IMG/VR virus record: IMGVR_UViG_3300044681_000281
Coordinates: 11,131 to 75,130 of that record
Strand: one strand, 5' to 3'
Length of the DNA stretch: 64,000 bases
Source of the DNA: a virus
In this document: piece after piece, positions 10,804 to 49,889 of the stretch
Layout: every line of letters begins with the position of its first letter
How positions within the stretch are numbered: position 1 is the first letter of the stretch
Notes under the pieces: generated by a model
What the model was told of the DNA's origin: nothing
The model's input: only the letters and a program-made list of their open reading frames with translations
Database searches by the model: none
Position numbers and translations under genes: made by a program

Positions 10804-11169
10804 TTACCTAAGTGTAAGTAAATAAGAGAGTTTGTTGATGGTTGCCAACATTTCATCCCTTATGTTTAGTAAGTCGCTGTCCGTTGGGCTGATCTCCATT
10901 CCCTGTAATGTTTGTCTCACAGTTTTGATCATACCTAATAAATCGACATCCGAAAGATTGTTAATCGTAAGTGTCTTATCCTCATCTTCGAGAATAAACC
11001 TACCGTGTAGACCCATACATGTTTCAACATAGGAATCTATGAGTCCATCCAATGATTCGTAAGCATCACCAATCGCCACGTGTTTTGCATGACTCTTGGT
11101 TTGCCAGTGTAATATCCTTAATTGTGATTGTAGTTCTAAAAAGAACTTTACATTACCATTCAACTTCAT
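10804..11169 (-). CDS. Ferritin/Dps-like four-helix protein (DUF5856-like)
   Basis: LHWQT...H.A....Y....D...E ferroxidase-type motif; C-terminal NIRDEML..INKLSYLLTL. Confidence 0.75.
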   Translation of the reverse strand: MKLNGNVKFFLELQSQLRILHWQTKSHAKHVAIGDAYESLDGLIDSYVETCMGLHGRFILEDEDKTLTINNLSDVDLLGMIKTVRQTLQGMEISPTDSDLLNIRDEMLATINKLSYLLTLR

Positions 11170-26045: not shown

Positions 26046-26128
26046 GTCTGTATATTTGTTATCTCAGTTATTCTTTATTATAAATATATCTCTTTGAGAA
26101 ATATTTTTTTATTTGTTTGGAAACTCGC

Positions 26129-29113: not shown

Positions 29114-29234
29114 CGATTACTTTAGTTATTATTTTTTTATTGTTTTACTATAAATATCTTTGTTTTTATGAAAGATTTCGGGACTTTTTTATTTCGGAAT
29201 ATTTAAAGATCTTTTTTTATCCATATTTATCTTT

Positions 29235-34050: not shown

Positions 34051-34081
34051 CAAATATAAACTATTTATAGTAATAAATCAA
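34051..34081 (-). promoter_or_regulatory. Bacteroidota-type promoter for the gene starting at 34028
   Basis: TTG-N20-TATATTTG on the minus strand, overlapping the + strand TATTTAT motif of the neck gene. Confidence 0.65.
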
Positions 34082-40788: not shown

Positions 40789-43482
40789 TTAATTTGGTAT
40801 ATGAACAAATAATGTGTTAGCTGATCCACTTTGAGTTGATGTTGGTGTTGGTTGTGGTGTTGCCGTTGGGTTTGGTGTCGGGTTAGGCGTTGGATTTGGT
40901 GTGGATGATGGCGTTGGTTGTGGTGTTGCCGTTGGGTTTGGAGTTGCCGTAGGATTCTCCGTTGCTGTTGGATTAGGGGTCGGATCCGGAGTTGCCGTTG
41001 GGTTTGGAGTTGCCGTAGGATTCTCCGTTACTGTTGGTTCAGGTGTAGGATTTGGAGTTGCCGTTGGATTTGGTGTCGCAGTTGGATTCTCCGTTGCCGT
41101 TGGGTTTGGCGTTGGATTTGGTGTTGCGGTAGGATTAGGTGTAGCCGTCGGTAATTCTGTGGCAGTTGGTTGTGGTGTTGGATTTGGTGTGGCGGTAGGA
41201 TTAGGTGTAGCGGTTGGTAACTCGGTTGCTGTTGGGTTAGGGGTTGGATTAGGGGTAGATGTTGGCACCGGTGTCGCTGTTGGATTCTCCGTCGCCGTTG
41301 GGTTAGGTGTTGCCTGAGGTGTAGATGTTGGATTAGGTGTCGCATCAGGTGTCGGTCCGGGAGTTGCCGTTGGGTCCGGTGTTGGGTTGGGGGTTGCCGA
41401 TGGGTTAGGTGTTGCCGTCGGTAATTCAGTTGCCGTTGGGTTTGGGGTTGGCTCTACAGTTGCGGTAGGATTAGGAGTACTTGTTGGGTTCTCCGTTGCC
41501 GTTGGGTTTGGTGTAGAATCCGGTGTTGCCGATGGATTAGGGGTTGGTGTTGGATTTTCAGTAGCGGTCGGTTGTGGGGTTGGTTCTGAAGTTGCCGTTG
41601 GGTTAGGTGTCGCAGTTGGTAACTCAGTGGCGGTTGGGTTAGGTGTTGCCTGCGGAGTTGCCGATGGGTTCGGGGTTGACGTTGGGTTTTCCGTGGCGGT
41701 TGGTACTGGTGTAGGTTGTTCAGTCGCCGTCGGATTAGGAGTTGCGGTAGGATTTTCTGTCGCAGTTGGATTAGGTGTTTCTGTCGGTAATGGTGTTGAA
41801 CCATCAGTCGGTACAGGTGTTGCCGTTGGATTTGCCGTTGGATTTGGTGTGTTTGTCGGTTCGGGTGAAGGTGGTGGTGTTGCTGGCAATGTTGAGGTTG
41901 CCGTAGGTTCGGGGGTTGGGTTTTGAGTGGCTCCAGGTGTTGATGTCGGATTAGGTGAAGGTGGTGGTGTCGGAGTCGCAGTTGACTCAGGGGTAGATGG
42001 AGGTGTGGCAGGTGGTGTTTGTGTCGGCAATTCAGTTGCGGTCGGTTCAGGTGTACTAGTTCCTGTTGGTTCGGGTGAAGGTGGTGGTGTTTGTGTTGGT
42101 AATTCAGTGGCGGTTGGGTTTGGAGTTGATGGTGGTGTTGCCGATGGATTAGGAGTTGGTTCCGCGGTTGGTTCTGGTGTAGATGATGGTGTTGGATTTG
42201 GTGTGGCCGATGGAGTTGCCGTTGGTAATTCAGTGGCAGTTGGTTCGGGTGAAGGTGGTGGTGTTGCTGTTGGGAATTGTGTTGCTGTTGGATCAGGTGT
42301 TGGATTTGGTGTCGCAGTAGGATTCGGAGTTGCCGTCGGTGGGTAACAACACTCAATTAAACCTGATAAAATATTCTCGATCCTTTCATTAAATGATGCG
42401 GAGATAATTAAAAACGACGCAGTGAAGTCGTTAAAATCAGATCTTATTGATCCACTCTCAATCTCTAAAGAATCTAAACGACCTTCAATAGTTGTTAAAA
42501 CCACTGGTGTCGCGGTTGGTTGTGGTGTTGGGTACGGAGGAATATCACCTAACGTTATCCATGAACCACTTTTATTATCTAATACTTCCCACCTACCATC
42601 ATTAGATGATGTGTATGTATTAAAGTCAGTTCTAACACTAACACTCTCAGTTTCTAAAGAACTAACCCTTCCATTTAATGAAGATGTGGTTAACTCAATT
42701 GATTCAAATTTAGAATCTGCTGACGACGTGTGTTGGTTGAAATCGGAACGAATTGATCCTGTCTCCGATTCAATTGCACCAAATCTATTATTTGATTCCA
42801 ACACGTATGTCGCAAATGCATTATCATTTTCGGTATCAACACTATTAATTAAATCTACAATTTCTTTAAACGAATCTTTATCAGCATCTGATGAGAACAA
42901 AATGGCATCTATTCTACCCCTCTCAATCTCAATTTCAGAACTAAGAGAACCTGTAGTTATTTCTATAGAATTAAGTCTACCATCAATCGTTTGTATGTCG
43001 GTCTCAATACTTGAGGTGGTAATTTCAATAGAATTTAATCTACCATTTACAACATCTAAATCCGTCTCAATACTCGCGGTTGCGTTTTCTAATGCGTCTA
43101 ATCTTCCATTCTGTTCTGTGTTAACATAATTGTTTGAGGAAGTATATGTGTTGAAATACTCTCTTAATTCTTGAACTTCGTAATCGGTAGCAAATCCATC
43201 GTCTAAAGATCCTGTAAATGATTCGATAGAATCAAGTCTTTCCTTAGCGGATGATGAGAAGACATTTAACTCACTAATTGAAGATGTAGATGAGTTTAAT
43301 GAAGACGTAAATGAGTTAAATGAGGAACTCAAAACAAATGCAGATGATAGATCATCCGAAATTTGACCCTTAATTGTGTCTAATGAAGTTCCATAGGTTT
43401 TCCCGTCCTGTGAGATAGGGATAATACCACTCCCACTTGGGGTTAAACTTGAACTTAGATCCGAAATTCTTCTAAATGCCAT
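40789..43482 (-). CDS. Fibre-like protein with an N-terminal coiled coil and a ~500-aa mucin-like Pro/Thr tract
   Basis: RL.SIE..T.S 14-aa coiled-coil repeats followed by PTATPNP/PTATELP/PTATENP repeats. Confidence 0.75.
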   Translation of the reverse strand: MAFRRISDLSSSLTPSGSGIIPISQDGKTYGTSLDTIKGQISDDLSSAFVLSSSFNSFTSSLNSSTSSISELNVFSSSAKERLDSIESFTGSLDDGFATDYEVQELREYFNTYTSSNNYVNTEQNGRLDALENATASIETDLDVVNGRLNSIEITTSSIETDIQTIDGRLNSIEITTGSLSSEIEIERGRIDAILFSSDADKDSFKEIVDLINSVDTENDNAFATYVLESNNRFGAIESETGSIRSDFNQHTSSADSKFESIELTTSSLNGRVSSLETESVSVRTDFNTYTSSNDGRWEVLDNKSGSWITLGDIPPYPTPQPTATPVVLTTIEGRLDSLEIESGSIRSDFNDFTASFLIISASFNERIENILSGLIECCYPPTATPNPTATPNPTPDPTATQFPTATPPPSPEPTATELPTATPSATPNPTPSSTPEPTAEPTPNPSATPPSTPNPTATELPTQTPPPSPEPTGTSTPEPTATELPTQTPPATPPSTPESTATPTPPPSPNPTSTPGATQNPTPEPTATSTLPATPPPSPEPTNTPNPTANPTATPVPTDGSTPLPTETPNPTATENPTATPNPTATEQPTPVPTATENPTSTPNPSATPQATPNPTATELPTATPNPTATSEPTPQPTATENPTPTPNPSATPDSTPNPTATENPTSTPNPTATVEPTPNPTATELPTATPNPSATPNPTPDPTATPGPTPDATPNPTSTPQATPNPTATENPTATPVPTSTPNPTPNPTATELPTATPNPTATPNPTPQPTATELPTATPNPTATPNPTPNPTATENPTATPNPTATPNPTPEPTVTENPTATPNPTATPDPTPNPTATENPTATPNPTATPQPTPSSTPNPTPNPTPNPTATPQPTPTSTQSGSANTLFVHIPN
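40830..42343 (-). repeat. Coding low-complexity tandem repeat (Pro/Thr, mostly 18-bp units)
   Basis: GTTGCCGTTGG-like units repeated dozens of times with synonymous variation. Confidence 0.9.
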
Positions 43483-43495
43483 TCTTATAAATATT

Positions 43496-44518: not shown

Positions 44519-44577
44519 TTTTACTTTTCTATATAAATAGTAAAAACATCAGTTATTTTTGGTCTGGCAGGTAATTT

Positions 44578-46353
44578 TTAGAACGTACCACTAAATTTAT
44601 AAACTCTCCCCATTTCTAATCCGTACCCACTGGATTCTACTATAGTAAAATTCCTTATTGTACAAATTGAACCATTATATGATGGTGCAGATGTTAATTG
44701 TATTTTAACACTGTTTCCTGTAGAGTCATATCCCGCACTTGGGTTGTAAGGGTTAGATGGCATCCCCACTAATTCGATTGTTGATGACGTTGTCAATGAT
44801 TGCCATAAACCTTCCCCATCTATTACACCCGCATTATATGGTATTATCCCATAAACGTTTTCACTATTTGGTCCTAACACCATTTGACGATTAAATTGTA
44901 ATTCGTAGATATCCTCCCATGCAGTTGACGTTCCAAAAGTGTTCGCGGGACCTTCAACACGGATGACCGAAAGATCGTAAGCATTATTGTTTACTTGATA
45001 GAATGGTATAATTGGTAATGTTACGGTTGGTGTTGGAGTAGGGGTTGGGGTCTCGGTACTTGTAGGTATTGGTGTGTTTGTTGGTGTAGGTGTACATTGA
45101 ACGATAAAAGGTTCATATCTTACAACAACACCATTCACATCGGTTTCAATTATATATTCTGTGGAACCAACTACCCATAAAAGTCCTTGGGGTGTCCCAT
45201 AGTACTGATTTGTAACCCAAAATTGATTACTATCTTGACCATTTGGATTTGTAAACTGAGTACCCAAACCTAATGTGTTACCATAATAAGTTTGAGTTTG
45301 GTAATTGGCGGCAAGAGCACTACAAGTTGCATCACCTAATTCACTTGTTGTCATTCCACTAAAAGACAACGATCCCATACCAAGACTATAGACATACGCC
45401 AATGTAATTGAATTTATAACTTCAGTGGCCGTAGGTGAAGGTGTCTCAGTAGGTGTGGGTAAAGAACTACAATCAACGATTTCGGTCACCACACCATCAA
45501 CGACTTTATATGCCGCGTTTAAGGATGGGTCTGAAATGTTGTAGTTAACAAAGTACGTACCTCCCCACCATGTATTTGAATTTGCCTGTATAGTTAATCC
45601 GGAATTTAAATAAACTATGTCACCTACTTGAGGTGTTGGGTTATTAAAATAGACGGTGGTAGTGTTGGATGCGAAACATGACACACCTAAACAATCCAAC
45701 GCCTGACACGTTAAATAACTACTATTATAAATGGTTCCAATACCTCCCACACCCCAAACAAACATTGACGAGTAGGATGATGATGTTGCTGTCGGAGCGG
45801 GTGTTGATGTGGGTTCAGGTGTACCTGTAGGTGTTGGAGTTTCTGTTGGGGTAGGTGTCGGATCATTGGTTGGATTAGGGGTTGATGTTGGTTCTGAAGT
45901 TGACGTAGGTTCGGGGGTTGATGTTGGAGGTATAAGAGGGTATTCACATATTCTAAAATAATGAATTTCATTTGTATAACCCGTATATGTAAAAACATCA
46001 TTATTTAAAATGAAATCTTCATAATCATGTAAAATATTACCCTCCTCATCTCTTATATTGAAATGATTGGTAAACTCATCATAGTCAAAAATTTGTTCTA
46101 AACCATAGTATAAGTAATTAGGATCATTTGGTCGGTTATCGATTTCACATAATTTAATTAATGGTCGATCTGTTCTATCATTACGTAAATCATTTAATAC
46201 ACCCACAGGTAAAACCAATGGGTTACTAAAATCTAAAACTTTGGGGTCAAAATCATTATCAAACCCCGCAATTTCATAGTCGTAAGTTTCGGAATTATCC
46301 AATTCCAAATCAAACCCTATCCTTAAATTCCTTAAAATGTCCTGACTATTCAT
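44578..46353 (-). CDS. Multi-domain protein with three Pro/Thr linkers (putative virion decoration/adhesin)
   Basis: Cys-containing beta-rich modules separated by PTxT tracts. Confidence 0.65.
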   Translation of the reverse strand: MNSQDILRNLRIGFDLELDNSETYDYEIAGFDNDFDPKVLDFSNPLVLPVGVLNDLRNDRTDRPLIKLCEIDNRPNDPNYLYYGLEQIFDYDEFTNHFNIRDEEGNILHDYEDFILNNDVFTYTGYTNEIHYFRICEYPLIPPTSTPEPTSTSEPTSTPNPTNDPTPTPTETPTPTGTPEPTSTPAPTATSSSYSSMFVWGVGGIGTIYNSSYLTCQALDCLGVSCFASNTTTVYFNNPTPQVGDIVYLNSGLTIQANSNTWWGGTYFVNYNISDPSLNAAYKVVDGVVTEIVDCSSLPTPTETPSPTATEVINSITLAYVYSLGMGSLSFSGMTTSELGDATCSALAANYQTQTYYGNTLGLGTQFTNPNGQDSNQFWVTNQYYGTPQGLLWVVGSTEYIIETDVNGVVVRYEPFIVQCTPTPTNTPIPTSTETPTPTPTPTVTLPIIPFYQVNNNAYDLSVIRVEGPANTFGTSTAWEDIYELQFNRQMVLGPNSENVYGIIPYNAGVIDGEGLWQSLTTSSTIELVGMPSNPYNPSAGYDSTGNSVKIQLTSAPSYNGSICTIRNFTIVESSGYGLEMGRVYKFSGTF

Positions 46354-46406
46354 ACTATTATAAATATCTTTCTTAACATTTGATATTTATAATAAAACTA
46401 GTTTCT

Positions 46407-47141
46407 ATGAATAATTTCGTAAAACAGGTCATTGAGGAGAAATTTGCGTCAAAAGCACAACAAAGATTCTTCTATGCGAAGGCCAATGAAAAGGGTTCAA
46501 GTAAGAAGGAAAAGAAGAAATGGTCTAAATGGGCTAAGGAGTTTTCTTCTGACACAGATTTCGATGAGATTCCCGATAAAGTTGCGTCCGAAGAGAAAGA
46601 GGTAGATGAAATTGTCGATTCAAAGGGTAATATTAAAAGAGGTGAAAAACCAACAGACTTACCTAAGAAAGGAATAACATCAAAAAGTACCTCAGACAAG
46701 GCGGCAAAGACATTTGGTGGTTCAATGGGAACACATGGTGTTCACGGTACCCACACTTCTTTAAGATATTGGGCAGAATCTGACATGAGTAAATCATTAG
46801 GGTACGACGACACTTTAGGTGATGACGATTCATTTAAGGAGGCGTATCGTCACTTTACTAAAACTTTAGGATTGACACATGATGATGCGATGGAAAGACT
46901 CGAATCTATGGGATATGACGAAAAGTTACCCGATGATAAAGTTAGATTGGTTGAAAATCCTAAGAAATTTATGAGAGATTACGTTGAGACTGTACTTTCT
47001 AAGAAAACCACAGATTCAGAGTTAGTTAAATCGGGGGAAACTAAAGAAATTCCACCAATAATCATGAGACAAATTAATTCTCTTAAAAATTCATTGGAGA
47101 ATAATGGATTATCTCTAAATGATGTGAAAGACTTATTCTAA
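46407..47141 (+). CDS. Hypothetical protein (possible head-internal protein)
   Basis: MNNFVKQVIEEKFASKAQQRFFYA; first of four TAATG-coupled genes. Confidence 0.75.
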   Translation: MNNFVKQVIEEKFASKAQQRFFYAKANEKGSSKKEKKKWSKWAKEFSSDTDFDEIPDKVASEEKEVDEIVDSKGNIKRGEKPTDLPKKGITSKSTSDKAAKTFGGSMGTHGVHGTHTSLRYWAESDMSKSLGYDDTLGDDDSFKEAYRHFTKTLGLTHDDAMERLESMGYDEKLPDDKVRLVENPKKFMRDYVETVLSKKTTDSELVKSGETKEIPPIIMRQINSLKNSLENNGLSLNDVKDLF

Positions 47142-47623
47142 TGAATGGTAGATTAAAAAATAGAGTTTTTCAGATTCCCCAAAACGTATGTGACTATGTA
47201 CAAAAAGTCTTTTCGTCTTTGGAGGATAAATCTATTGATGGAACTCAAAGAGCAAAGAATTTACTAAAAAATAAGAACGTCACATATGGTCAATTGAAGA
47301 GGATTCTTCACGATTTAGAATCAGGTACCCTCCCTCTTATTCAATACAACTTAGCGGGTGGGGATCTCATGAAAGAATGGGGTAGGACCTTCTTAGATGG
47401 TGAAAGAGACTTAATTGAGAAAAATAAGAAATCACAACAAAGATCAAATAATATTGGTCAAATAGATAGAAAAAATGCATTCCTTAAAACTCACACAAAA
47501 AAATCAAACGATCATAGAATCGGTGGTAATATGTTAAAGTCTAATTCAGATAAAACATCAGTAACCCCAATATCGTCTTTAGGTGTTTTTGAGGAAATAA
47601 AGAGAATCAAAGAATTATTATAA
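47141..47623 (+). CDS. Hypothetical protein
   Basis: GTQRAKNL...TYGQLKRI...GG...W; ends EEIKRIKELL. Confidence 0.75.
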   Translation: MNGRLKNRVFQIPQNVCDYVQKVFSSLEDKSIDGTQRAKNLLKNKNVTYGQLKRILHDLESGTLPLIQYNLAGGDLMKEWGRTFLDGERDLIEKNKKSQQRSNNIGQIDRKNAFLKTHTKKSNDHRIGGNMLKSNSDKTSVTPISSLGVFEEIKRIKELL

Positions 47624-48567
47624 TGGCAAGTCAAATAGATTTAATATCCGATAAGTTTAGAGATGAGGCGTTGGCAAGAAACTCATACAAAACAGATAAT
47701 AGGTACGATTCAAACCATGTAAACGCAATCTCTAACGGAGATGAAAAAGGTAAAGGTGAGAATGGTTCCTATGTTGGTTCTTCTGTGGATATCAATAATC
47801 GAATTGACTCCATGGGTAGAAATAAATACGGACCTGATTTTGGTTATGGTGTTGAGAACCCCAATGCGGTTTCTGATGGTGACGAATACGGAAGAGGTGA
47901 AAATATGGGTCAGATTGGGACATTTACCGATCTCAACCAAAGAAGAGAACACCTACTAAGAAATGAGTATAACGAAAATAATGGGTATGGTGTAAATCAT
48001 CCAAACGCATTGTCAGATGGTGATGAAGAAGGAAAGGGCGAAAACAATGGAAAAGTCGGAGGTTTAACCGACATCAACACTCGAATTGACAACGTGGGTA
48101 GAAACTTTTACAATCCTCAAAATGGTTATGGAGTAACCCATCCAAATGCATTATCTGATGGTGATGAAAAAGGTAAAGGCGAAAACAGTCAAAGTATTGG
48201 TTCACTAACAGATATTAATACAAGAATAGATAGTCTTAATAGAAATATCTATAAAGAGAATAGTGGATATGGGGTGAACCACCCTAATGCACTCTCAAGT
48301 GGAGACGAACCTGGTAAGGGAGAACTTAGTGGTCAGGTTGGTGGATTAACCGACATTAATTCAAGGACTGACAACCAAAGTAGAAACATATATACACCGA
48401 CAAATGGCTATGGTGTTGTTCACCCAAATGCAATCTCCGATGGAGATGAAAAAGGAAGAGGTGAGGGTACCGCCAAAAAAGTGGGTACACGAACCGATAT
48501 AAATGAACGCAATCAACACATTGGTAGGAACCAATATAGTTCTAATCAAGGATATCCCGACTTTTAA
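47623..48567 (+). CDS. Protein made of six 47-aa tandem repeats
   Basis: Unit RNxY-x5-YGVxHPNALSDGDExGxGE-x5-G-x2-TDINxR, 141-bp period. Confidence 0.85.
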   Translation: MASQIDLISDKFRDEALARNSYKTDNRYDSNHVNAISNGDEKGKGENGSYVGSSVDINNRIDSMGRNKYGPDFGYGVENPNAVSDGDEYGRGENMGQIGTFTDLNQRREHLLRNEYNENNGYGVNHPNALSDGDEEGKGENNGKVGGLTDINTRIDNVGRNFYNPQNGYGVTHPNALSDGDEKGKGENSQSIGSLTDINTRIDSLNRNIYKENSGYGVNHPNALSSGDEPGKGELSGQVGGLTDINSRTDNQSRNIYTPTNGYGVVHPNAISDGDEKGRGEGTAKKVGTRTDINERNQHIGRNQYSSNQGYPDF

Positions 48568-49247
48568 TGAAACTTTTAAAGGACATATATAACTTTTTAT
48601 TAGGTGAACAATCTGAACCTAAATTGGCGAGTAGACCAAGATCTCTTGCGGATGCGATAAAAAAGAGACACCCTGTTAGTTTTTTTTATAACGGACCAAG
48701 AGGAAAGGTACAAGCGGGAAGAAGAGTAAAAGCGGAAATGGTTGCTTTAGGTCTTTCTAAAAAAGGTAATATGATCGTAAGAGCGTGGGTTGAACCACCA
48801 TCCAGATCTAAGACCGGTTTTGAAAAGGGTCATTGGAGAACTTTTATGGTGGGTAGAATGAATCAAATCGAAATATTTGATCAGGAGACCTTTGACCAAA
48901 AACGTCCAGGATACAAAGAAGGTGATGATAACTCAATGACTGTTACTTACGTTACACCTGATTGGTCATCGACTCCATCACCACAACAACCTGAAACACA
49001 ACCACAAGAACCAACCCCACAAGAACCTACCCAACCTGAACCTCAGGACACAACACCCACTGAACCTGAACAGTCAATCGAACCTCAGAGTGTGGATTTA
49101 CCACAACCTGAACCTGAAAATACTCCAAGTATTGAACCACCACAAGTGGATGATAATGAGGATGATGACGAAACAGAGGATGAACCAAATAATAGTGAGG
49201 AGTTAAATGAAACCCTCAAAAGAATAAAGGAATTACTTTATTATTAA
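48567..49247 (+). CDS. Stand-alone WYL-like domain protein with a Pro/Gln/Glu-rich tail
   Basis: AIKKRHPVSFFY...R..E...LG......VRAW...WRTFMVGRM matches the WYL fold pattern. Confidence 0.7.
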   Translation: MKLLKDIYNFLLGEQSEPKLASRPRSLADAIKKRHPVSFFYNGPRGKVQAGRRVKAEMVALGLSKKGNMIVRAWVEPPSRSKTGFEKGHWRTFMVGRMNQIEIFDQETFDQKRPGYKEGDDNSMTVTYVTPDWSSTPSPQQPETQPQEPTPQEPTQPEPQDTTPTEPEQSIEPQSVDLPQPEPENTPSIEPPQVDDNEDDDETEDEPNNSEELNETLKRIKELLYY

Positions 49248-49283: not shown

Positions 49284-49889
49284 ATGTCACAGCAAGGTAC
49301 AGGAACTATTAACGAGAACGATTTAATGAAAAAACTCGTCAACGCAAAGAAAGTAATGAATGCGGTTGACGGAGGTAATTATACTACGGGTAATATTAAC
49401 CCCGCATCCATTATGGAATCACCAGATGAATTAATGTCGTCGAATTCGCCCATTAAACCAAGATCAGTATCCACACCTGTTGTGAACGAAGATAGAATTA
49501 AAAACTCTAAATTACCCGACTCAATTAAACAGGCAATGATTAACAACCCAATCCCTACAATGGAACAAATTTCTTTAAGTGATGGGTTGGATATGAATTT
49601 TATTGAAGGTGCTAAGAAGTTAATGGAAAGGGAGGGTTTATCAAAACCCCAACCCGCAACAGTGTCATTACCAAAACAGGTTTCTATTCCAACATCGTCA
49701 TATTCAAATGATGATCTTAAGTCCTTAATTAAAGAAACAATAAAGGATACCTTAGAGGAGATTGTGGAAAGGAAATTAAATTTAATCCTCACCGCACAAC
49801 AAACCGCATCAATCAACGAAAATCTCGTACTAAAAGTGGGTGATTCCGTATTCAAAGGAAAGATTACTGGCGTAAATAAAGCCAAGTAA
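49284..49889 (+). CDS. Hypothetical protein
   Basis: 201-aa ORF containing IKNSKLPDSIKQAMINNPI. Confidence 0.75.
   Translation: MSQQGTGTINENDLMKKLVNAKKVMNAVDGGNYTTGNINPASIMESPDELMSSNSPIKPRSVSTPVVNEDRIKNSKLPDSIKQAMINNPIPTMEQISLSDGLDMNFIEGAKKLMEREGLSKPQPATVSLPKQVSIPTSSYSNDDLKSLIKETIKDTLEEIVERKLNLILTAQQTASINENLVLKVGDSVFKGKITGVNKAK

Follow-up and report, generated by a model that had tools for sequence, protein, structure and literature searches.

A fixed five-gene block encoding a repeat protein and a stand-alone WYL protein in uncultured T4-like phages, and its possible role as head cargo

A compact block of five genes, g1 to g5, is carried on the + strand of the 64,000-nucleotide stretch of viral DNA analysed here (positions 11,131 to 75,130 of IMG/VR record IMGVR_UViG_3300044681_000281; hereafter the window), itself part of a 75-kb contig whose completeness is rated 24%. 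The first gene, g1 (46407-47141), encodes a hydrophilic protein of 244 residues. It is followed by g2 (47141-47623; 160 residues), with a helical N-terminal domain (residues 1-105), a basic disordered linker and a C-terminal helix motif; g3 (47623-48567; 314 residues), made of an N-terminal half unit, six units of 47 residues (DNA 47698-48543) and a terminal GYPDF; g4 (48567-49247; 226 residues), with an N-terminal helix, a WYL domain, a Pro/Glu/Gln linker, an acidic patch and a C-terminal motif; and g5 (49284-49889; 201 residues), the fifth constant member of the module. Four of the five protein families are unnamed. The block is a core element of a clade of large T4-like phages, and we tentatively suggest that its products may be loaded into the phage head.

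The first four genes overlap by TAATG at 47139-47143 (g1/g2), 47621-47625 (g2/g3) and 48565-48569 (g3/g4), and no Shine-Dalgarno-like sequence precedes g2, g3 or g4. Stop-start coupling is therefore the likely route by which these downstream genes are translated. In relatives the genes are still closely joined: neighbours overlap by 8, 4 or 1 bases or are separated by 1-4 bases. An initial annotation of this region, made from the letters of the sequence, had read three TAATG junctions behind a single TATTTAT motif, and both observations hold, the coupling being kept in relatives. It had also described an operon of four genes, which is right for the coupled genes but too narrow for the conserved unit: g5 is always present, and the unit is one of five genes.

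The contexts of the module were read in IMG/VR viral loci. A search with g3 retrieved 51 loci, 49 of which have the same gene order, namely u2 and u1 on the opposite strand, then g1-g5, g6, g7, in some loci g8, and g9. The u1 protein has Thr/Pro/Ser-rich linkers; g6, a glycosyltransferase, always follows the module in the main clades, and g9 is a dUTPase. Eighty further loci came from a second search with single-unit g3 homologues. Among 82 loci examined with profiles, the g2 N-domain was matched in 82, the g3 repeat unit in 81, the g4 N-domain in 77, g1 in 67 and g5 in 66, in constant order. Independently, a search with g6 found the whole module directly upstream in 45 of the 46 loci with enough upstream DNA, the sole exception being the most distant g6 (32% identity). 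The linkage on which the initial annotation had made its proposal depend is thus present, and more than 100 viral contigs share the order and tight spacing of g1-g5. The block is fixed and lies beside core genes; it is a core module and not an accessory or variable island.

In a distant clade, mobile elements lie around or inside the module, the gene order being kept throughout. They include an open reading frame (ORF) for a TnpB-like protein of 433 residues downstream (L052:5240-6541), another for a repeat-rich, endonuclease-like protein of 550 residues upstream (L052:115-1767) and a small GIY-YIG-like ORF inserted between g2 and g3 (L053:4700-4951).

The promoter-like motif TATTTATA stands on the + strand at 46384-46391, 16 nt before the ATG of g1 and within the longer TTGATATTTATA at 46380-46391; a mirrored copy of TATTTATA (46359-46366) faces the divergent gene u1 (44578-46353). 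The extended form TTGATATTTATA is invariant in 32/32 distinct upstream regions of relatives. Within the window, the sense-strand core TATTTAT is found no more than 60 nt upstream of 12 of the 49 genes; the 60-nt intervals upstream of genes hold 12 of the 32 TATTTAT occurrences in about 2% of sequence space. The sense form of TATTTATA, often as GATATTTATA, lies 4-43 nt before 12 of 49 genes (window positions 22738-60800), for instance at 29149-29156, 26079-26086, 34062-34069, 43486-43493 and 44532-44539. Several copies are only 4-6 nt from the ATG, and the corresponding mRNAs would therefore be leaderless. The genes marked in the window include those for the tail sheath, the tail tube and an adaptor-like protein, while those for the polymerase, the helicase and ribonucleotide reductase are unmarked. 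In relatives, TATTTATA precedes the scaffold gene, the prohead protease gene and a core-like gene (L185-L188). TATTTATA is the complement of the T4 late promoter TATAAATA. Reading the motif as a T4 late promoter in the form TATAAATA was rejected, as one-directional contexts show the complement, TATTTATA, as the sense form. The motif is a candidate late promoter of the clade, and from its presence before both groups of genes we infer that the module is co-expressed with the morphogenesis genes.

The second set of observations concerns the extremities of the module proteins. A site of the form (L/I)-x-E occurs near the N-terminus of g1 (residues 9-11; 100% of homologues), g3 (residues 8-10; 76%) and g4 (residues 12-14; 100%), and near the C-terminus of g2 (residues 149-151; 83%) and g4 (residues 213-215; 97%), where it lies 10-12 residues from the end of the protein. 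No conserved (L/I)-x-E was found within 15 residues of the N-terminus in six control families from the same loci; in one of the controls, g8, a site close to the C-terminus is conserved in part. In g2 and g4 the site is part of a longer C-terminal motif. That of g2, GVFEEIKRIKELL (47582-47620, + strand), consists of (L/V)-F-E followed by a helix of the form I-x-R-I-K-x-L-(L/M), and that of g4, LNETLKRIKELLYY (49203-49244, + strand), of L213-x-E215 followed by the same helix. In the main clade both families conserve the motif, and g2 and g4 are the only such pair in the window. In bacteriophage T4, the protease gp21 cuts after L/I-x-E, propeptides of 10-20 residues direct proteins into the head, the first 10 residues of the internal protein IPIII suffice for this targeting, an Asp at position 10 prevents cutting while leaving targeting intact, and Alt is trimmed at its C-terminus too (PMC9026906). 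T4 propeptides are 10-20 residues long (PMC5694885). No paralogy was found between the module proteins and either head-core and scaffold proteins or other proteins of the window.

The phages that carry the module have the corresponding head genes. A gp23-type capsid protein (PF07068) and a gp21 protease (PF03420) were not found in the window's own contig, a 24% fragment. They were sought in four long relatives of 203-365 kb, one of which has terminal repeats and is rated complete, and both are present in all four; the PF03420 protease was also found in two of the three closest relatives tested, the third being a 10% fragment. The head genes of relatives are arranged in the order portal, two small proteins, protease, acidic scaffold and capsid protein. 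This cluster is separated from the module by 11-25 kb in five of six relatives and by about 100 kb in the complete 365-kb genome, so that the module is distinct from the scaffold/core cluster. The capsid protein of relatives reads ...YLINE/AAVSD...FPIIRRVF..., with I-N-E followed by A, a site that presumably aligns with the maturation site of T4 gp23 and that fits the L/I-x-E rule. The window itself encodes a tail sheath, a tail tube, a baseplate hub and an adaptor-like protein, together with a family-B DNA polymerase, a DnaB-type helicase, a UvsX-like recombinase, a protein resembling single-stranded DNA-binding proteins, ribonucleotide reductase, dUTPase and PhoH. Judged from these genes, the hosts of the module are an uncultured clade of large T4-like myoviruses, with genomes of up to 365 kb.

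DNA and protein searches of a phage collection with the region, g2, g3 and g4 gave no detectable homologue in any cultured phage, and the window polymerase shares only about 25% identity with its counterparts in Salinibacter and Nostoc phages. The GC content of the window is about 35%, and a Shine-Dalgarno-like tetranucleotide precedes only 4 of the 49 genes. These two features, with the weak similarity of the polymerase and of Nudix sequences to those of Salinibacter/Flavobacterium phages, hint at a Bacteroidota host. Between 40001 and 42000, within an ORF on the - strand (40789-43482), the local GC content jumps to 0.47, with a GC skew of +0.32; this coincides with a long low-complexity tract of the 897-residue protein encoded there.

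The repeat protein of the module is g3. Its GDE anchors recur exactly 47 residues apart, five times, which defines six units over residues 26-307, flanked by a half unit on the N-terminal side and, on the C-terminal side, by the start of a further unit that closes in GYPDF. The six diverged repeats of 47 residues described in the initial annotation are thus real, and their period is exact. The invariant core of the unit is Y, NA-S-GDE-GKG, G, D-I, R, N-Y. The units of the window share 51% amino-acid and 57% nucleotide identity and use the same codon at only 47% of their conserved residues; the array is therefore old and has been selected at the protein level. A profile of 54 units, run against 1.84 billion representative proteins, matched 212 proteins at E<=0.001, mostly single-unit proteins of 75-95 residues and a few long arrays. 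Among 104 distinct g3 proteins from the fetched viral loci, the number of units is 1 in 36, 2 in two, 3 in three, 4 in 40, 6 in 20, 7 in two and 14 in one, the last being a protein of 731 residues with 14 full units (L118:4686-6881). In a tree of the units, those of close relatives group by position whereas those of distant ones cluster within genomes, which means that arrays expanded independently in different lineages.

The inability to assign the repeat to a known family, first noted in the initial annotation, persisted in searches of Pfam, PHROGs and the Protein Data Bank (PDB). Pfam and PHROGs gave no match for the g3 of the window, NCBIfam nothing meaningful, and ESM Atlas no match for g3 or g2. 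When 51 single-unit homologues were compared with Pfam, no repeat or metal-binding family (EF-hand, RTX, thrombospondin type 3, BNR and others) was matched, the only hit, to Cation_ATPase_N (E 0.0022), being due to chance. A weak match of two g3 homologues to DUF5772 is spurious, as it is absent from these 51 proteins and from the window, and the best PDB profile match to the unit, the FlgC rod protein (E 0.47), is at chance level. The AlphaFold2 model of the g3 monomer shows no confident fold (predicted local distance difference test, pLDDT, 44; predicted template modelling score, 0.16). It contains a 13-residue helix at (V/T)DINxRIDxxxR in each unit and is coil elsewhere; the helix has a heptad-like hydrophobic pattern (I, I, V and F at i, i+4, i+7 and i+11) and is accompanied by a long loop.

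Such an architecture could be that of an external appendage or decoration of the virion. The g3 protein would then be a fibrous obligate oligomer whose length is set by the number of units, and the polyproline rod of g4 a spacer; both proteins may be modified by the neighbouring glycosyltransferase. Short heptad-like helices alternating with long loops, a poor monomer model, as is common for intertwined fibres, a unit number that varies from 1 to 14, divergently transcribed neighbours that look like Thr/Pro-rich structural proteins and the invariable g6 downstream all agree with this. A single unit of about 80 residues, the commonest form in the wider g3 family, would be very small for a fibre, however; no tail-fibre, fibritin or decoration family was matched, and the WYL domain of g4 and the Nudix fusions of g2 described below are left unexplained. 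We consider an appendage unlikely.

In the AlphaFold2 model of g2, residues 10-100 form a small helical domain with two short strands (pLDDT >90), followed by a disordered basic linker and a terminal helix. Comparison of the model with the PDB (Foldseek, VIA-align) gave only generic helical matches (best Z 5.4), and Pfam, PHROGs and NCBIfam nothing meaningful. The g2 N-domain is a new small helical domain; neither it nor the g3 unit has known fold relatives. Among viral models (BFVD), several structural relatives of the g2 N-domain are named prohead protease/XkdF, HAD, ParB or Dps, names that fit a cargo-adaptor domain. The family is large: of the 8,000 candidates scored, 588 matched at E<=0.001, on contigs of up to 308 kb. 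In a distant clade (L051, L052, L053, L057) the N-domain is fused to a Nudix hydrolase (PF00293, E 1.6e-20) whose sequence matches models of the MutT type and of RNA pyrophosphohydrolases; the g2 of the window has no Nudix domain. Longer g2 fusions, of 507-2000 residues, were not found in the search, which is weak evidence. The N-domain of the g2 protein at L051:5196-5966 (residues 7-111) weakly matches the PADLOC model PDC-M09B (E 0.0015, positions 145-246 of 486), which may point to a bacterial relative of the domain.

The g4 protein begins with a helix that runs to L12-x-E14, and its WYL domain covers residues 26-109 (DNA 48642-48893). The window protein scores 17.2 bits (E 0.005) against the Pfam WYL family (PF13280), below the cut-off of 21.8 bits; among 30 homologues, 22 match at E<=0.01, the best at 1.6e-7. 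No helix-turn-helix (HTH) family was found in g4 or these homologues, and only about 25 residues precede the domain. The reading of gene 4 as a WYL-like protein lacking an HTH is upheld by these comparisons: WYL membership of the N-domain is good for the g4 family as a whole and below the cut-off for the window protein, the Sm/WYL fold itself being supported by sequence only. At most one WYL-type g4 gene was found per genome searched. The remainder of the protein had been described as a disordered acidic tail. A Pro/Glu/Gln-rich, polyproline-like linker (residues ~121-198) and an acidic patch are indeed there, but the tail is not merely disordered, as it ends in the conserved helix. In some clades g4 is a WYL domain alone, of 122-153 residues. 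Many orthologues have an extra conserved module of about 70 residues with GEGTR between the Pro-rich linker and the terminal helix (alignment columns ~370-460; e.g. L005:6945-7781), and others a coiled-coil-like insert of about 100 residues (columns ~200-300; e.g. L017:6662-7648); the g4 of the window has neither.

The initial annotation proposed that the module serves counter-defence, with the WYL protein as the sensor of a nucleic acid or a signal and the repeat protein as a sponge for a ligand, for example a cyclic nucleotide or Ca2+. WYL domains occur widely in defence regulation, and the PADLOC model of a CRISPR-associated WYL protein is matched by g4 (E 3.6e-4); in addition, the candidate defence Nudix PDC-S07 is matched (9e-17) by the Nudix domain of the distant g2 fusions, the weak PDC-M09B match of the L051 g2 N-domain points the same way, and an arms race could underlie the differing repeat numbers. 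Counter-defence genes known so far usually have a patchy distribution and lie in variable regions, whereas essentially every relative has this module at one fixed position, conserved to the same degree as the neighbouring core genes; this fixed and universal presence weakens the proposal. Moreover, no defence or anti-defence model is matched by g1, g2, g3 or g5 of the window. Any ligand of g3 or g4 would be hypothetical, and metal binding by the acidic Gly loop of the repeat, suggested in the initial annotation, is speculative. The sensor/sponge was thus not borne out, a generic WYL model being all that was matched, and we regard a dedicated counter-defence module as improbable. Counter-defence could still describe what a packaged cargo does after injection, and the two would be compatible: the packaged T4 protein IPI* is an anti-restriction protein.

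A role in nucleic-acid metabolism deserves more weight, although we still judge it somewhat unlikely. The module would encode a late-phase cytoplasmic complex acting on nucleic acids or nucleotides, in replication, recombination, transcription or RNA turnover, with none of its proteins packaged; the WYL protein would bind single-stranded DNA or RNA, the g2 adaptor would recruit a Nudix enzyme in some clades, and g3 would be the scaffold. The WYL domains of PIF1, PafBC and WYL1 bind nucleic acids in single-stranded form, and the Nudix fusions, as noted, match models of MutT-type enzymes and of RNA pyrophosphohydrolases. In distant clades the family-B DNA polymerase gene stands immediately before the module (L051, L053, L057) or is separated from it by two further ORFs (L077), and in L051, a complete 365-kb relative, the gene just downstream of the module (L051:8102-10345) encodes a 747-residue protein with a CCA-adding/poly(A)-polymerase-like region. 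PhoH, an HD phosphohydrolase and dUTPase are encoded downstream of the module in the window. On the other side, the promoter-like motif is common to the module and to structural and head-assembly genes, not to those for polymerase, helicase and ribonucleotide reductase, family libraries detected neither a catalytic nor an ATPase domain in the five window proteins, and the one apparent link of g1 to the replisome was not reproduced. That link was to the gp62 family (PF16790, the small subunit of the T4 clamp loader), matched by 5 of 25 g1 homologues at E>=0.0012; it was rejected, as it gave no match at E<=1 in the genomes of four relatives and no PDB match to the T4 clamp loader.

The g1 protein has an N-terminal peptide, MNNFVKQVIEE, with an invariant I9-x-E11, a His/Gly patch (HGVHGTH) and one hairpin resembling tetratricopeptide repeats (TPR). 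Matches to designed TPR proteins reflect this single helical hairpin and are inflated by the repeats of the targets, and g1 is not regarded as a TPR protein. Both g1 and g5 gave only isolated, chance-level matches in Pfam, PHROGs and NCBIfam and belong to no known family there; the C-terminus of g5, LVLKVGDSVFKGKITGVNK, is highly conserved.

As the best supported of the readings considered, we propose that g1-g5 may encode late, stoichiometric proteins that enter the prohead and are processed by the gp21-type protease, forming a set of cargo comparable to the T4 internal proteins. Because the basis of this reading is short motifs, a promoter-like motif and an analogy, we put it forward as a tentative possibility; the time of expression, the packaging, the cleavage and any activity of the five proteins are what we infer by analogy with T4, whereas the genes with their linkage and conservation, the domain families, the places of the motifs and the T4-like head genes of relatives are observations. 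A TATTTATA-type promoter would drive synthesis of the module proteins together with that of head and tail proteins; short terminal peptides would bring the module proteins into the prohead, where the prohead protease would trim them after (L/I)-x-E. They would exit with the DNA and act at the onset of the next infection. In such a set, g4 would provide a WYL domain, probably for binding a nucleic acid or a small ligand, the g2 N-domain would be an adaptor bearing the C-terminal helix common to g2 and g4, or a Nudix hydrolase in distant clades, and g3 would be an expandable array of helix-plus-loop units, a multivalent partner or filler whose unit number sets the stoichiometry. The suggestion in the initial annotation of a stoichiometric and possibly packaged module fits the shared late-type motif, the conserved terminal (L/I)-x-E sites and the T4-like head machinery of the hosts.

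Several points weigh against head cargo. (L/I)-x-E is a motif of three residues and was sought after the idea had been formed; in the g3 of the window, position 10 is Asp and not Glu, the change that prevents cutting in T4. The single-unit clade (e.g. L100) lacks the shared C-terminal helix in g4, and the Nudix clade lacks it in g2 as well as in g4. The module lies outside the portal-to-capsid gene cluster, and in distant clades its place beside the DNA polymerase gene points to a role in replication or nucleic-acid handling. TATTTATA may mark all late genes and not virion genes alone. The structural relatives of the g2 N-domain in BFVD have modest template modelling scores, and the aligned part of each target was not inspected. 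Finally, packaging is a prediction made from gene sequences.

A more specific form of the head-cargo proposal can be imagined, which we think quite doubtful. The C-terminal tag, L-x-E followed by I-x-R-I-K-x-L-M, would dock g2 and g4 on the g3 units or on the scaffold, the number of g3 units (1-14) would set how many copies of the WYL protein or enzyme (Nudix in some clades) are packaged and injected, and the protease would release the cargo at L-x-E.

The comparison with the T4 internal proteins IPI, IPII, IPIII and Alt shows what is shared and what is not. Like the phages that encode those proteins, the hosts of the module have a T4-type capsid protein, a scaffold and a gp21-family protease. 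The module proteins are likewise small, hydrophilic and otherwise unrelated to one another, with (L/I)-x-E 10-14 residues from the N-terminus and, as in Alt, near the C-terminus of two of them (g2 and g4), and their genes too lie outside the head-gene cluster. Unlike the T4 proteins, which share nearly one capsid-targeting sequence, they have terminal peptides that differ from each other; they have no sequence similarity to any T4 internal protein, their packaging and cleavage are only predicted, and they are encoded by a fixed, coupled operon of five genes. We know of no T4 counterpart of the shared C-terminal helix motif.

Other known systems resemble single components of the module. The g4 N-domain matches, family-wide, the profile of the WYL proteins (PF13280), which include PafBC, BrxR, CapW and the Cas13d accessory protein WYL1; the g4 protein, like WYL1, is small. 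It differs in having neither HTH nor WCX, in having a polyproline linker and a terminal, docking-like helix, and in being encoded by a core, predicted late gene of a lytic-type jumbo phage and not beside a defence system. By analogy only, a repeat protein of variable unit number beside partners that share a short terminal peptide recalls the cohesin-dockerin scaffoldins, and a g2 N-domain that can be followed either by a helix or by a Nudix hydrolase recalls the MuF-type polymorphic head proteins with their variable C-terminal domains. The module has no sequence or fold similarity to either, the likeness being one of architecture alone and the binding only supposed.

The clade that carries the module is widespread in aquatic metagenomes and has no cultured member. 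Four unnamed families and a stand-alone WYL protein, held in one fixed block in such a clade, make up a considerable part of core phage biology that still lacks an explanation. Should the proteins form a cytoplasmic complex, a new nucleic-acid-handling assembly linked to the phage polymerase would have been found. Head cargo of a T4-like phage would, as an overall kind, be already known. If the products of g1-g5 are injected head cargo, the T4 internal-protein principle would extend to a WYL domain and a Nudix enzyme, a C-terminal targeting tag would be revealed, and the module would offer a natural case of cargo dosage set by repeat number.

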